Positions 34,493-44,431 of a DNA stretch of 64,000 bases are shown piece after piece (positions within the stretch are counted from its first letter, which is position 1; each line of letters opens with the position of its first letter). Under the pieces are notes generated by a model. That model was not told where the DNA came from. It did no database searches and saw only the letters and a list, made by a program, of their open reading frames with translations. Source of the stretch: a virus; the IMG/VR virus record IMGVR_UViG_3300033064_006579, positions 48,459-112,458 of that record. One strand, 5' to 3'. The translations under genes and the position numbers were made by a program.

Positions 34493-34792
34493 CTACTCTC
34501 CGCATGAATAATGATTGCCATCGGGCCACTTAAAGCGCCCGCCCCAAGTTCCGCCAATACCCTCCCAGAACTCTCCGAGCGGCAGGTGGTCGATAGTTTC
34601 TCTAAGGTACGCACCGTCTTTAAAAAGATTCAGGTCGATAGCCAACCGCCTGTAATGGAAGCTCCCGTCCTTATGTCCCCTTGAGGCCCAGGCGTCTCCG
34701 AATGTCAACTCATACCCGCTCTCATATGCGAAAAGTATCAACCTCGCAACCATGTAAACAAATTTACTTTGTTTTTCCCTGACTGCCCCCAT
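34493..34792 (-). CDS. M15-family peptidase (probable endolysin)
   Basis: S.H..RLAIDLNL...WGGRF..DGNHYS zinc-peptidase motifs. Confidence 0.85.
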   Translation of the reverse strand: MGAVREKQSKFVYMVARLILFAYESGYELTFGDAWASRGHKDGSFHYRRLAIDLNLFKDGAYLRETIDHLPLGEFWEGIGGTWGGRFKWPDGNHYSCGE

Positions 34793-34826: not shown

Positions 34827-35708
34827 CTAAAATAGCGTTGGCACAGCCTCTCGATATAACTTTGTCCAAAACTTTTTATCGGCATTCGCTCTTGCATTAC
34901 AACTCCTACATAATGTTATCAAATTATCAGGGTGACAATTTTTCTTGTCGTAATCAATATGATGAATTACTAAATCGCAATTTTTATCCCAACAATCAGG
35001 ATTTTGACACTTATAATTATCTCTTTCTTTTATGTCTTCTTTAAACTCCTTGTCTCCCCAAACATGACAATACTCTTCTTTAGAACTCCCGCCTTTCCAC
35101 CTTGGATGGTTACAAGGGGCAGAAAATCTTTCAAAACTTGCCAAACTCATTTTCAATCTTGTTTTTTCAGAGAATTTTCTTCCTTTATTTGCCAAACTTA
35201 TTTTTTCTCTAACTTCAGATCGTTTAGCAGGATTATCGTCACCATATAATCTTGTTGTTTTTATTTTAGCCTTTGTTTCTTCAGAATGTTTCATCCCTTT
35301 ATGAGCATTAGATATTTTCTCTCGCCATTCTTTTGTTATAACCCTGCCTTTCATTTTCTCACTTATTTTTTCTCTAACTTCAGATCGTTTAGCAGGATTA
35401 TCATCACCACGAAGAGCTGATTTTTTCAAATTTTCAATGTGAAGTTTGCTTAATTTTTTACCCTTGTGAGCGTTAGATATTTTCTCTATCGACTCTTTAG
35501 AATGAGCCTTGCCATAAAAATGATTTTTCTCGCCTTTGTGAGATTCGCTTAATTTCATTTTATGTTCTTTTGAAAGAGACTTTCCAGAATGGCTTTTACT
35601 TATCTTTTCTCTAACCCACTTCATTCTTGATGAATGGCCTTTTAAAAATCGATTCCCCAACTTGGCATACTCACCACAACCACATTCACATAGAGTTTTA
35701 TTCTTCAT
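34827..35708 (-). CDS. HNH homing endonuclease with NUMOD3 repeats
   Basis: CECGC, H[ST].E.K.KIS repeats and C-terminal HHIDYDKKNCHP.NLITLC; paralogue of 19315-20328. Confidence 0.9.
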   Translation of the reverse strand: MKNKTLCECGCGEYAKLGNRFLKGHSSRMKWVREKISKSHSGKSLSKEHKMKLSESHKGEKNHFYGKAHSKESIEKISNAHKGKKLSKLHIENLKKSALRGDDNPAKRSEVREKISEKMKGRVITKEWREKISNAHKGMKHSEETKAKIKTTRLYGDDNPAKRSEVREKISLANKGRKFSEKTRLKMSLASFERFSAPCNHPRWKGGSSKEEYCHVWGDKEFKEDIKERDNYKCQNPDCWDKNCDLVIHHIDYDKKNCHPDNLITLCRSCNARANADKKFWTKLYREAVPTLF

Positions 35709-37182
35709 CTGACCATTCACTCTCATTGCCCTCATCAATTGCGCCCCACTGGTTGGCGGGCGCAATGGGTAGATTAAAAGGCACTTTATAAATATCCATG
35801 CCGTCCTCTTCAATAATATTCTGCTCCTCTTCCTCGCTATTAAGTCCCTCTTTATGTCGCCATGTTTTGCGGGAAAGTATTTTACTCTCGTGTTGAATTT
35901 TCCTTGCTTGATTATTCTTCATAATATCTGCAAGGATGAGGGGCGGCCATTCAAGTGCGCAGCCCTCTTCTTCGTCTTTTGGGATCTCACCATAATCCTT
36001 GCCTGCGGAGATAACCCAAACGAATATTTCATTATAATACCAACCGAAGAAGTCCTGCCAGTCCTCGATCTCTCTGACAAACGGATTCTGTGCAGTAACA
36101 GACGAACTATAATTGGCATTCGAGTAATCAGCGGTGAGCATCATTTCGGGCATCCCACACCCAGCCGCCACCGCCAATAGCATGGCCCTGCCGTCATCCT
36201 TGACATCCGGAGCATTAATATTTGGCGACACCATCTCATACTCAATCCCCTCGCTGGCCGTAATAACGGTACCAGCGGCAAAAGCCTGCTGTTTATTGCG
36301 ATCTGCACTTTGGTGCTGCGCCATTTGGGCCTCGCGCAAACTCTCTACCGTATTGCTCGTGCCCTTCACGGTTTTGATGAGCGCAATCGCCGAACGCACT
36401 TTATTAAGGATAATCCTGTCGTCGAGCCAGTTAAGATACTTCGCAATCATCGGCAATGCCGTCAATAGTGCGCTCATGCCTCGCTTTACATCACTATCGA
36501 CGAATATTTTAATGTGGATAATCTCATCGGCCTCGATTGCTTCAATCAGGTTTCCCTCTGCATCACAGTGATAATACGTCCTCACGTCCTCAACGTCATT
36601 CGGATCGGTACCAATACCAAAAGTCACCTGCTCGCCAGCCCGTAAATCCCCTTCTTTTACGGGATTACGTATTTTTTCAGCCCGCATAAAACGTATTTTC
36701 ACGTCTCCGTTGTTCTTGTCAACAAAGCGCCGTATAAAAATCTCCCCATCTCTGAAAACCCTCTTGACGAGTTCCTTCTCTCGCAGTGACCATTTATTCA
36801 TCTTGGCAAAATTATCCCAAGTATCTTTCACCTTCTCGTTCTCACTATCAGGCTTAATAGTCGGTCCCTTGCCAAGAACGAATTTACTCAAGTTCCGAAC
36901 AATAGCTTTTGCATAGAGGTTTGTGGCGAAAGCCTTATAAGCCACTGCAAGCATTTCATAGTGGTTATAACCAGTGACATCGCTAATATCACCGCTCTCT
37001 GCCCCTATCATAATCCAATTACTATCGCCAGGTTCAGTCGGAACAGGGCGTTGCGACGGATCTGCCTCTTTCTTAAAAATATTACTGAGTTGTTCTGTAG
37101 CAAGTTCGATCCTCGCGAGTTCGAATTTATCCTGCTGTATTTTTAAACTTCTTCTCGTTCTAAACCCCTCTAAGAGTTTCAT
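35698..37182 (-). CDS. Portal protein
   Basis: About 490 aa after terL; FRDGEIF, IIHIK....KRG.S.L and ANYSSS motifs. Confidence 0.85.
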   Translation of the reverse strand: MKLLEGFRTRRSLKIQQDKFELARIELATEQLSNIFKKEADPSQRPVPTEPGDSNWIMIGAESGDISDVTGYNHYEMLAVAYKAFATNLYAKAIVRNLSKFVLGKGPTIKPDSENEKVKDTWDNFAKMNKWSLREKELVKRVFRDGEIFIRRFVDKNNGDVKIRFMRAEKIRNPVKEGDLRAGEQVTFGIGTDPNDVEDVRTYYHCDAEGNLIEAIEADEIIHIKIFVDSDVKRGMSALLTALPMIAKYLNWLDDRIILNKVRSAIALIKTVKGTSNTVESLREAQMAQHQSADRNKQQAFAAGTVITASEGIEYEMVSPNINAPDVKDDGRAMLLAVAAGCGMPEMMLTADYSNANYSSSVTAQNPFVREIEDWQDFFGWYYNEIFVWVISAGKDYGEIPKDEEEGCALEWPPLILADIMKNNQARKIQHESKILSRKTWRHKEGLNSEEEEQNIIEEDGMDIYKVPFNLPIAPANQWGAIDEGNESEWSDEE

Positions 37183-41366: not shown

Positions 41367-41421
41367 GCCGAATGGTTAGATCAGCGGCGCTTTTCGCGTC
41401 GGCTGAATCAACTTGTTATGC
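41367..41421 (-). mobile_element. attC-like site 5 (55 bp)
   Basis: GCATAAC-AAGTTGATTCAGCCGACGCG-AAAA-GCGCCGCTGATCTAACC-ATTCGGC imperfect hairpin. Confidence 0.7.
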
Positions 41422-41422
41422 T

Positions 41423-41644
41423 TTAATTTGCATGCGGCAATGATTCATGTCTAATTACACCACGCCAATTTTGACCTCTACCTTGACCATAAGAAACTGC
41501 GTTTTCATGTTTTACTATTTTGAGATCCAATATGCGTAACACCGCTTCTAATTGCTTAATGTGCTTTCCATTTCAAGATCCCTTGCATAATTCACCAACC
41601 TTACTTCCGCAATGGTGACACTCTACCTTTAAATTCATGCCCAT
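41423..41644 (-). pseudogene. Cassette ORF interrupted by one in-frame TGA (41573-41575)
   Basis: MGMNLKVECHHCGSKVGELCKGS*NGKHIKQLE...HAN; the frame ends just before attC-like site 5. Confidence 0.45.
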
Positions 41645-41658
41645 CAGCATCTCCTGAA

Positions 41659-41781
41659 GCATAATGGTGAAGTGAGCGGTTGCGGGGCCGTGTCACGGGT
41701 ATGGAATTGAACCATATTGAGCACTATTACCCACCAGGGATTCCCGCTAACCCCGCAATCCGCTCGACTGACTTGTTAGAT
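41659..41781 (-). mobile_element. attC-like site 4 (123 bp)
   Basis: ATCTAAC-AAGTCAGTCGAGCGGATTGCGGGG...CCCCGCAACCGCTCACTTCACC-ATTATGC. Confidence 0.7.
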
Positions 41782-41987
41782 TTTATTTTCATTTCAAGAT
41801 CCCTTATTTTCATCTCAAGACCCCTTATTTTGTCTTCATCTCGAATGGCTTCAAGTGTGGCTTCTACAGCATATTTCTGTAAAGCAGCACAATATTGACC
41901 CATATTTATCAGTCCCGGGATTGGCTCATTATTGTGATCCCATCCTAAAGGTGTGCCCCGAAAATCTTCCTTATGTGGTATTTCCAT
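41727..41987 (-). CDS. Cassette-borne hypothetical protein
   Basis: SD AAGGAGG just after site 3; C-terminus reads into site 4. Confidence 0.65.
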   Translation of the reverse strand: MEIPHKEDFRGTPLGWDHNNEPIPGLINMGQYCAALQKYAVEATLEAIRDEDKIRGLEMKIRDLEMKIKSNKSVERIAGLAGIPGG

Positions 41988-42000
41988 AAAACCTCCTTAA

Positions 42001-42058
42001 ACATAATGTTTAGCTGACCTGCCGTTCGTCTCCGGTCGGGTCTGGCGGCTTGTTAGAT
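42001..42058 (-). mobile_element. attC-like site 3 (58 bp)
   Basis: ATCTAAC-AAGCCGCCAGACCCGACCG-GAGACGAA-CGGCAGGTCAGCTAAAC-ATTATGT. Confidence 0.65.
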
Positions 42059-42213
42059 TGCTTAAAGTGCTCGCCTCCACATGGTGGCCTATACGGAAAA
42101 ACAATATACCTTGCCGAGCCACGTTTTAGACATCTCATGCTGGATGGTTCATCTTCGCGTTTATCGAAAACGGTAAACCATATACAATTCTTACAATTCA
42201 TGCTCATCCTCAA
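42010..42213 (-). CDS. Cassette-borne Cys-rich hypothetical protein
   Basis: CKNC..F...C...C pattern; reads into site 3. Confidence 0.6.
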   Translation of the reverse strand: MRMSMNCKNCIWFTVFDKREDEPSSMRCLKRGSARYIVFPYRPPCGGEHFKQSNKPPDPTGDERQVS

Positions 42214-42216
42214 GCA

Positions 42217-42340
42217 GCCTAATGGTTAGATCAGCGGCGGGCTACTGATATGCCCCACAATCAGGGCAGTAGCGATGACCACCAACCTTCATCATACGAT
42301 GATGCGAACATTTACCGTCCGCTGAATCGGCAGGTTGGGG
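42217..42340 (-). mobile_element. attC-like site 2 (124 bp)
   Basis: CCCCAAC-CTGCCGATTCAGCGGACGG...CCGCCGCTGATCTAACC-ATTAGGC. Confidence 0.7.
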
Positions 42341-42489
42341 GCATCAGGCGACAAGATACCCCGGCAAAAAGTTATTGCCTCCCTCGCATCGTCTTGTGCT
42401 TGTTCGTGCTTCATTTCCATAGAACTTTCAAGCTGTTTGATAGTGTCTATTAAAAATCGCTTAACAGCTTCAATATATGGGTTATACAT
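42292..42489 (-). CDS. Cassette-borne hypothetical protein
   Basis: SD GGGAGG overlaps the end of site 1; reads into site 2. Confidence 0.6.
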   Translation of the reverse strand: MYNPYIEAVKRFLIDTIKQLESSMEMKHEQAQDDAREAITFCRGILSPDAPNLPIQRTVNVRIIV

Positions 42490-42496
42490 TTCAGCC

Positions 42497-42615
42497 TCCC
42501 AATGGTTAGATCAGCGGCGGGCTACGCTGAAAAGGCACCCGCAATCACTAAGAGCTTTTTGGCATCCAGTACACAAACCGTCAATAACCTCGTCCGCTGA
42601 ATCGGGTTGTTGGTT
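42497..42615 (-). mobile_element. attC-like site 1 (119 bp)
   Basis: AACCAAC-AACCCGATTCAGCGGACGAG...CCCGCCGCTGATCTAACC-ATTGGGA. Confidence 0.7.
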
Positions 42616-42747
42616 TTCCATTTCGACTACCTTAACTTGGACGTTCATAGTGCACGTTTTTGAAAATAGACACGCCTCCAGGTTCTCTTTGCTCATCCAA
42701 TCTTCGCCGTAATCATCACGCCACTCAATGCTAAATGTTCTTTTCAT
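42511..42747 (-). CDS. Hypothetical protein reading through attC-like site 1
   Basis: Start refined to MKRTFSIEW with SD GGAGG. Confidence 0.6.
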   Translation of the reverse strand: MKRTFSIEWRDDYGEDWMSKENLEACLFSKTCTMNVQVKVVEMENQQPDSADEVIDGLCTGCQKALSDCGCLFSVARR

Positions 42748-42748
42748 T

Positions 42749-42991
42749 TTACCCTCCTTTCCCGCACTTTTTCCAGTACGGTTTCTCCGAAATAAACTTA
42801 AATTTTCCCAACACCCTGGGATGAAACAAAATGAAACAATCCTCACAGAAGACTTTATACAAACTTGGCTTGTTGTCCTGGTAAACAATAGCCCTGCCTG
42901 TGCCATCATAAACACGGCTACGAATCCCCGAGGTGACAATAATCAACCCTCCACAGACCGGACATCTCAACATCTCACTCTCCTTCCCCAC
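42749..42991 (-). CDS. Zinc-ribbon hypothetical protein
   Basis: CPVCGG...CEDC. Confidence 0.55.
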   Translation of the reverse strand: MGKESEMLRCPVCGGLIIVTSGIRSRVYDGTGRAIVYQDNKPSLYKVFCEDCFILFHPRVLGKFKFISEKPYWKKCGKGG

Positions 42992-43439
42992 ACTTGCACC
43001 TGGACGGCTGGCGTCCGAACCAAAGTGCCATTGCTGTACTGAACTCGCTCCAATCTCCGAACCACTCTCTCTTTAGCGGACAAGTTGAGAACCACGCCTC
43101 CCACTCATCCACCGGTTCCGGTTCCGGCTCAGGCTCAGGCTCAGGCTCAACAAAGCCTGCTCCCCAATATCTTTCCTTGTGTTCAGGCTCTGGAGCGGGC
43201 GGGTCGATGATAAGATACCCCTCACTTGTTGGAGAATAATCTATGGTGGCAATGTTCCAACAGTTGGTGACGGTATTCCAAAACTTTTCCCCATATTTGG
43301 GAAAGCCAATCCGCAGCGTCCACCCGCCCTCTCTCACCAACGTGAAAGCCTCATGTAGCATCTGCGGCAAGGTGCGTAGGACTGCCCCTGGGAACCGCTC
43401 TCCTTCCTTATAAATTACATACTTGTCGTCACTCATCAT
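42975..43439 (-). CDS. Hypothetical protein with (EP)n linker
   Basis: 154-aa ORF with SD. Confidence 0.55.
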   Translation of the reverse strand: MMSDDKYVIYKEGERFPGAVLRTLPQMLHEAFTLVREGGWTLRIGFPKYGEKFWNTVTNCWNIATIDYSPTSEGYLIIDPPAPEPEHKERYWGAGFVEPEPEPEPEPEPVDEWEAWFSTCPLKREWFGDWSEFSTAMALWFGRQPSRCKCGEGE

Positions 43440-44355: not shown

Positions 44356-44431
44356 TGGAGCGGAGAGAAGGAATCGAACCTCCGATACTTCTGGCCGGAA
44401 GCCAGATGCCATACCACTTGGCTATCCCCGC
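44356..44431 (-). tRNA. tRNA-Gly (TCC)
   Basis: GCGGGGA/TCTCCGC acceptor stem, U discriminator, encoded CCA, TCTGG-CTTCCGG-CCAGA anticodon arm, GGTTCGATTCC T-arm. Confidence 0.9.

Follow-up and report, generated by a model that had tools for sequence, protein, structure and literature searches.

Does a phage genome that encodes no integron integrase carry genuine integron cassettes, and does it do so with a changed base at the cleavage point of every site? The question is raised by a stretch of 64,000 nucleotides (the window in the following), which comprises bases 48459-112458 of the 112,458-bp IMG/VR virus record IMGVR_UViG_3300033064_006579. The record has direct terminal repeats and is rated complete. 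In the window, five co-oriented sites that resemble integron attC sites follow five small open reading frames (ORFs) on the minus strand (42615-41367) and span 1,249 nt. All five have ATT in the outer core, where attC sites have GTT. We consider it probable (roughly 0.75) that the array is a CALIN (cluster of attC sites lacking an integron integrase), i.e. a genuine integron-type attC cluster, the cassettes of which were built by integron-integrase-type recombination.

The five sites and their likeness to attC

Each site opens with a heptamer xxxxAAC, the inner core (R''), which is followed by five unpaired bases and a stem of 3 + 6 + at least 2 bp. The 5' arm of the stem contains two extra bases that lie 6 bp apart, the loop varies from 7 to about 77 nt, and the 3' arm is again followed by five unpaired bases before the outer core ATTxxxx is reached. 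The L''/L' stem has 10-11 of 11 pairs in all five sites, with the extra bases and the 5-nt spacers in place. Read on the bottom strand, the extra bases are a T and, 6 bp further on, an A, G or T. A Shine-Dalgarno sequence and a start codon are found 6-20 nt beyond each site. The sites fall into three types: type 1 comprises S1, S2 and S5, the 3' arms of which share one 19-mer, type 2 is represented by S4, and type 3 by S3. With cassette boundaries placed between the A and the TT of the sites, the array reads as follows:

42511-42747, minus strand: ORF A, 78 aa, no family; its final 35 codons lie within S1
42497-42615, minus strand: S1, 119 nt, type 1, 11 of 11 pairs; AAC end of the inner core at 42611-42609, outer ATT at 42503-42501; ORF A reads through it
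42223-42502, minus strand: cassette 2, 280 nt, with ORF B (42292-42489, 65 aa)
42217-42340, minus strand: S2, 124 nt, type 1, 11 of 11 pairs; outer core ATT at 42223-42221
42007-42222, minus strand: cassette 3, 216 nt, with ORF C (42010-42207, 65 aa, CxxC-rich)
42001-42058, minus strand: S3, 58 nt, type 3, nine Watson-Crick pairs and two that pair on the bottom strand only; outer ATT at 42007-42005; the whole site codes for the tail of ORF C
41665-42006, minus strand: cassette 4, 342 nt; it contains ORF D (41727-41987, 86 aa, coiled-coil-like), in which a 21-nt unit is repeated in tandem
41659-41781, minus strand: S4, 123 nt, type 2 with a branched loop, 11 of 11 pairs; outer core ATT at 41665-41663
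41373-41664, minus strand: cassette 5, 292 nt; its two ORFs are very short (41573-41662, 29 aa; 41423-41542, 39 aa)
41367-41421, minus strand: S5, 55 nt, short version of type 1, 10 of 11 pairs; outer ATT at 41373-41371; final site of the array

No site precedes ORF A; the start of ORF A and the stop of the gene upstream of it (42749-42991) overlap. A Pfam search of the cassette ORFs gave nothing above threshold, and a homologue search with ORF D returned only itself. The preliminary description of this locus, made from the letters alone, had placed hairpins of these five lengths at the 3' ends of small ORFs, and had assigned their boxes, their ATT ends and the Shine-Dalgarno sequence and start that follow. 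All of this is correct at the five sites, and the ORF coordinates agree with its statement that four ORFs run into their site.

Three tests bear on the identity of the sites. The first was a geometry scan of both strands of the whole 112-kb genome (AAC, 5 nt, 3 bp, one extra base, 6 bp, one extra base, 2 bp, a loop, 2-6-3 bp, 5 nt, and GTT or ATT). The five sites came out with 10-11 of 11 pairs; elsewhere the scan gave only three weaker matches with the same 5 + 5 spacing. A Poisson estimate from the scan background puts the probability of five matches on one strand within 1.25 kb at about 1e-9. Real integrons served as controls, namely class 1 arrays from R100 and from plasmids of Proteus, Enterobacter, Moellerella and Vibrio. 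In these, the phage-derived geometry finds the attCs of aadA1, dfrA14, cmlA5, aac(6')-IIc and aph(3')-XV at cassette boundaries, and the loop-side extra base of the attCs found is always a T on the bottom strand.

The second test was a covariance model (R1) built from five class 1 clinical attCs only, with which the 64-kb window was searched without filters. All five sites were recovered full-length and with exact ends among the seven best matches, at 18.7 bits for S4 (E = 0.008), 13.0 for S5, 10.9 for S2, and 10.8 for both S1 and S3. S4 alone is individually significant; the best unrelated match in the window reaches 11.8 bits. The same model gives 17-35 bits for held-out real attCs (aac(6')-Ib, dfrA14, arr-3 and arr-2), and 9-29 bits for sites of the phage family on other contigs (see below). 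The phage scores thus lie at the low end of the real range; the A and the 5-nt spacer both count against the sites. The exact coincidence of the ends is hard to explain unless the sites are attC-like.

The third test was the folding of single-stranded DNA. The L stem forms on the bottom strand with a probability of 0.63-0.89 in S2-S5 (0.77 in S2), and the bottom strand is the more stable one in these four sites. The probability is only 0.07 in S1. Compared with shuffled sequence, S4 alone folds much better (z = -4.3).

The position of the sites, at the 3' ends of ORFs and directly before the next ribosome-binding site, would also suit hairpins that are merely transcription terminators, RNA-processing sites or generic intergenic repeats without any link to recombination. 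This explanation is very improbable. No T-run follows any of the five sites on the gene strand. Seven positions are of the wobble type, namely the core position of all five sites and two positions in S3, and all seven pair on the bottom DNA strand only, the mRNA sense having C:A mismatches there. In their asymmetric bulges, 5-nt spacers and AAC/xTT cores, the sites agree with real attCs, and the cassette-end rule described below is obeyed throughout the family. The frame in which the type 1 arm is translated is the same in most cassettes but differs in S2, and in S5 the arm is untranslated; it is therefore conserved as DNA. Conservation of the arms at the protein level was considered as well, and is ruled out by the different reading frames.

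The read-through has a side effect on the encoded proteins. As ORFs read through the sites in a fixed frame, unrelated small proteins share site-encoded tails, which are seen in the window (42497-42615 and 42001-42058), in contigs L044, L047, L048, L049 and L051, and in L074 (14739-14986). The type 1 tail consists of ..QQ(N/P)DSAD, about 25 variable and often Cys-rich residues, and RR-stop, with the TGA within the 3' arm. The type 3 tail reads ..SNK....(D/E)(A/E)RQVS-stop. S2, in its other frame, and the untranslated S5 are exceptions to the type 1 frame.

The 21-nt unit that is tandemly repeated in ORF D (41775-41840) occurs once more in cassette 5 (41545-41600), where the sequence that comes next looks like a type 2 inner arm in decay. 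Loss of a site may have fused two cassettes into what is now cassette 5.

Related sites and the crossover footprint

Relatives were sought in metagenome contigs with the 19-mer of the S1, S2 and S5 3' arms, A or G being allowed at the core. Seven short contigs from two samples matched (L044 and L046-L051). They carry phage genes, among them a phrog_392 metal-dependent hydrolase gene (9e-53), a nucleoside deoxyribosyltransferase-like gene, and an M15 endolysin gene with 70% protein identity to the product of window gene 34493-34792. Between their small ORFs lie 18 sites of the same three types as in the phage, and their cassette content varies. The inner core ends in AAC in all of these sites, as it does in the five phage sites. 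The outer core is GTT in 14 and ATT in four of them, and the two forms are neighbours within single arrays (G-A-A-G in L048, A-G in L046/L051). S3 and a site on L048 share 82.7% identity over 52 nt. A search with the 5'-arm pattern added a single type 1 site, with GTT, that stands alone in an unrelated 46-kb phage, which is rated 97% complete and in which no tyrosine recombinase was found.

Exact-match searches elsewhere yielded chance matches only. An 18-mer hit 13 loci in 185,579 bacterial and archaeal species genomes, among them a triple match within a repeated protein domain of Belliella, and all of them are attributable to chance; diverged versions would be missed by this search. In IMG/VR, an exact 15-mer of the 3' arm gave 30 single matches, again all chance, and neither a gapped pattern of the short type nor the 20-nt cassette leader gave a match. 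So far, the three-type attC family is known only from phage or phage-like DNA, where it occurs in at least three unrelated backbones.

In the mechanism that we propose, the five sites would delimit four clear cassettes and a first gene that has lost its left edge. The folded bottom strand, which is the plus strand of the window, would be cut between outer-core bases 1 and 2, and each cassette would thereby start with a TTxxxx that is complementary to its own inner core, and not to that of the attC upstream. This rule can be checked on 15 cassettes from the phage and the contigs, three of which share one leader, so that the set is not fully independent. In these, 45 of 60 informative positions match the cassette's own inner core, against a mean of 27.6 in permutations, none of which (0 of 100,000) reached 45. 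For comparison, pairing of the cassette 5' end in place amounts to 30 of 72. The match is the footprint of a crossover between the G or A and the TT, and it is family-wide. The comparison of cassettes in relatives that the preliminary description had proposed thus revealed both variable content and a footprint at the first base of the outer core.

The evidence from the phage alone is thinner. The agreement of cassette ends that had been counted there (6 of 6, 5 of 6, and twice 4 of 6) is right, and cassette 5 stands out, as its 5' end, TTATGC, is perfectly complementary to its inner core, GCATAA. However, this amounts to 11 of 16 informative positions, a value that is equalled by 2 of 24 permutations, and is suggestive only.

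Mosaic breakpoints in the related contigs give a mixed picture. In L049 and L050, a 98.4% identical block starts 23 nt before the core, beside a gene that is only 73.5% identical. L044 (199-354) and L047 (395-550, reverse) share a 156-nt block that is 97% identical, consists of a type 2 attC and about 28 nt upstream of it, and is joined to two unrelated ORFs in different frames. The right end of this block lies exactly at GTT, the left end about 28 nt before the inner core.

Two further observations concern the contigs. The M15 peptidase (endolysin-like) gene of the phage (34493-34792) has no flanking sites, whereas its 70% identical homologue (L044 579-869) is a cassette between two attC sites. 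In L049 (743-765) and L050 (402-424), the first cassette is preceded by a conserved 23-nt sequence that forms no hairpin and ends at GTT. It lies just after the phage metal-dependent hydrolase gene, which in L044 carries a type 2 attC instead. This 23-nt sequence could be an attI-like or secondary insertion site.

The ATT core and the missing recombinase

The uniform ATT is not an assembly error, because contigs of seven runs are letter-identical across the array. In Frumerie et al. 2009 (PMC2811028), the GTT triplet is described as absolutely conserved in integron sites, and the conservation is thought to be maintained by the need for cassette exchange between integrons. The first base of the triplet is the base that docks during strand exchange. 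According to that study, activity falls by a factor of 10^3 to 10^4 when this base is changed in one partner only, and is fully restored when it is changed in both. The study also reports that a cleavage-triplet mismatch lowered recombination about 400-fold in one tested case, and that substrates with G1 changed to A1 are still cleaved in vitro.

Over the 23 sites of the family, the cores vary at position 1 only, which is G or A, and the other five positions are invariant. The inner AAC is kept in 8 of 8 ATT sites. As a result, the bottom, recombining strand has a G:T pair and the top strand a C:A mismatch, which agrees with the wobble that the preliminary description had deduced. As a T stands opposite the G on the folded bottom strand, the incoming C of a GTT partner would still meet a G. 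ATT thus appears to be a tolerated variant that is probably cross-compatible with GTT sites, and the mixed arrays and the sole variation at position 1 fit this view. In the proposed mechanism, the A in all five outer cores would be a G-to-A polymorphism that left the inner core untouched, and the ATT sites would remain usable substrates.

It nevertheless appears surprising that A is found in 5 of 5 phage sites of three types, when it is in the minority elsewhere; the chance of this is about 0.2^5. An effect of compatibility groups at the first base is conceivable, if rather doubtful. An all-A array would be expected to exchange best with A-type sites, because partners must share the first base (PMC2811028). 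A stronger version of the idea holds that the integrase of the host or of a related phage has shifted to ATT, and that the phage belongs to a separate, A-type exchange pool. Such pools are predicted by the rule of first-base identity in the same source, and the presence of A in all five sites and three attC types, against 4 of about 18 sites in relatives, would be accounted for. In contrast, GTT and ATT sites are adjacent in single arrays, the inner core of the ATT sites has not changed in compensation, and no recombinase with altered specificity was found. We therefore regard a shifted integrase as improbable. The variant recombinase with altered core specificity that had been suggested initially is not required, in view of the mostly GTT cores of the same attC types, the mixed arrays and the retained AAC.

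No candidate for an integrase or recombinase was found in the complete 112-kb genome with the profiles TIGR02249, PF00589, PF13495 and PF00239, which cover integron integrases, the general tyrosine recombinase domain, the N-terminal SAM-like domain and serine recombinases. The absence of an integrase, first noted for the window, hence extends to the entire phage. The locus is not a complete integron, as it lacks a tyrosine recombinase, and as the gene upstream of ORF A abuts ORF A, with no site in between. A CALIN, as defined for IntegronFinder, consists of at least two attC sites close together with no intI nearby. With five co-oriented sites in 1,249 nt and no recombinase candidate in a complete genome, the array is of this kind. 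Any movement would require an enzyme in trans, most simply a host IntI.

Alternatively, the array could be a fossil, which entered by integron-type recombination or was copied as a block from another phage, and has since become fixed. Its sites would then have been disabled or strongly damped by the change from G to A at the cleavage point, and would persist only through their coding role (four sites) and as the ribosome-binding context of the next gene (all sites). The identity of contigs from seven runs and two studies, with no joints among them, is what a fixed array would show, and the ORFs that read four sites, the poor folding of S1, and the loss of activity upon triplet mismatch in the one tested case (PMC2811028, as quoted above) point in the same direction. 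The pattern of variation, however, resembles a tolerated polymorphism and not decay, since only core position 1 toggles between G and A in the 23 sites of the family. The L stems keep their pairs, the bulges are in place, and A1 substrates are cleaved in vitro (PMC2811028). Rare excision events would moreover be invisible in contigs. A fossil is thus unlikely, if less so than a shifted integrase, and we prefer the interpretation as a CALIN with usable sites.

Several observations weigh against this preference. The outer cores depart from the GTT (GTTRRRY) of attC sites in five of five cases. The R1 scores of S1, S2 and S3 do not rise above noise (10.8-10.9 bits, against 11.8 bits for the best unrelated match). 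S1 folds poorly, and the long loops of type 1 are unstructured coding sequence, unlike those of the long attCs in Vibrio arrays, which are well paired. The sites thus need not all be equally competent. The end matching within the phage is not significant by itself. Some mosaic breakpoints lie about 23-28 nt off the core, which indicates that ordinary homologous recombination also shapes the arrays. Neither an excised nor a rearranged form, nor a joint, was seen in the assembled contigs of the seven runs, which are blind to rare excision. No IntI, attI or bacterial array with the three-type attC family was found, and the exact 18-mer search of the 185,579 species genomes yielded chance matches only. 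What had been called a gene-capture and shuffling system run by the phage is unproven; no excision joint or variant array was seen in the assembled contigs. The more basic claim that integron-type attC sites bound phage gene cassettes is supported by the anatomy, the match to class 1 attCs, and the relatives.

The host genome of the array is a complete 112-kb siphovirus-like freshwater phage. In the window, all genes are on the minus strand; among their products are a tape measure protein, a central tail fibre of the J type, a portal and a terminase. The stretch occurs in runs from two studies, which are metagenomes and viromes of freshwater. Array contigs bridge into flanking phage genes, and a chimeric assembly is ruled out by independent assemblies that span the edges of the array. 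No relatives of the large terminase were found in IMG/VR, and there was one match, at 20.6%, to a Microcystis phage. The GC content reveals no foreign island, and the HIP1 count (1, with 1 expected) gives no hint of the host. The array lies between early or accessory genes and packaging genes, upstream of the latter and downstream of a tRNA gene:

44356-44431, gene strand: tRNA-Gly (anticodon TCC), between a radical SAM gene and the block of small genes that leads into the array

The tRNA was the sole match in a search of the window at Rfam gathering thresholds, and Rfam contains no attC family at all. A GAGCCT-type microsatellite (43112-43149) encodes a PEPEPE tract in ORF 42975-43439. The contigs of all four runs examined break there, and the loose ends differ among runs, which points to a repeat that is common to other sequences in the samples. 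Directly upstream of the M15 peptidase gene, a 328-aa protein is encoded (34827-35813) that combines numerous short repeats rich in lysine (..H(K/S)G(K/E)..) with an HNH nuclease end.

Comparison with known integron-type arrays

Sedentary chromosomal integrons of the Vibrio type have homogeneous, species-specific attC families. The phage array is similar in that three of its five sites share identical 19-nt arms, and in that long sites measure about 120 nt. It differs in that three attC types are interleaved in one short array, and in that no bacterial genome with the family has been found. Class 1 attCs (aadA1, cmlA5, dfrA14, aac(6')-IIc and aph(3')-XV) resemble the phage sites in the order of the boxes, the spacing and the range of lengths, in the two extra bases 6 bp apart, of which the loop-side one is always a bottom-strand T, and in local sequence likeness of the arms around the L stem. 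S4 and the aadA1 attC even agree in having T-6-G as bottom-strand extra bases. The phage sites differ from the class 1 sites in the A that opens the outer core, in the 3' spacer, which is 5 nt long instead of 6 nt in most class 1 examples used, and in the absence of attI, Pc and intI nearby.

The closest counterpart of the ATT core is artificial. Among the variants made by Frumerie et al. (PMC2811028), A replaces G at position 1 of GTT, exactly as in the phage. In these engineered sites the complement in the inner core was changed too, whereas the natural sites keep AAC and hence have a G:T wobble. An all-ATT array beside GTT relatives is a natural test of the idea, put forward in that study, that GTT is conserved for the sake of exchange. 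It is possible, if on balance unlikely, that freshwater tailed phages keep their own pool of attC-bounded micro-cassettes, the sites of which double as coding sequence for protein tails, that a natural G-to-A switch at the cleavage base splits this pool into partly isolated exchange groups, and that host integrases merely provide the enzyme. The split into exchange groups, if true, would be a parallel in nature to the changes of specificity that Frumerie et al. engineered.

CALINs are already known from virulent and temperate phages, namely Tetrasphaera phage TJE1, Pseudoalteromonas phage PH101 and Polaribacter phage P12002L, and IntI1 recombines the attCs of virulent-phage CALINs (Qi et al. 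2023, PMC9892861). The class as such is thus not new, and the finding is less novel than the preliminary description had assumed. Its practical value is modest, as the cassette genes are tiny and have no assigned function. It adds a well-resolved case to a short list of phage-borne attC clusters. The occurrence of the family in at least three unrelated phage backbones, together with the failure of the exact-match search to find it in 185,579 species genomes, bears on whether phages merely carry such cassettes or trade them among each other.

Like the published phage CALINs (PMC9892861), the array is a series of co-oriented attC sites and small cassettes, the genes of which are oriented as in bacterial arrays, in a phage genome without intI. 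Unlike them, with their junctions between G and TTRRRY, it has ATT in all five outer cores; its sites are largely coding, and its attC family recurs on phage-like DNA instead of in a known host array. New are the uniform A at the cleavage base, the attC family that has so far been found only on phage-like DNA, and the ORFs that systematically read through the sites.

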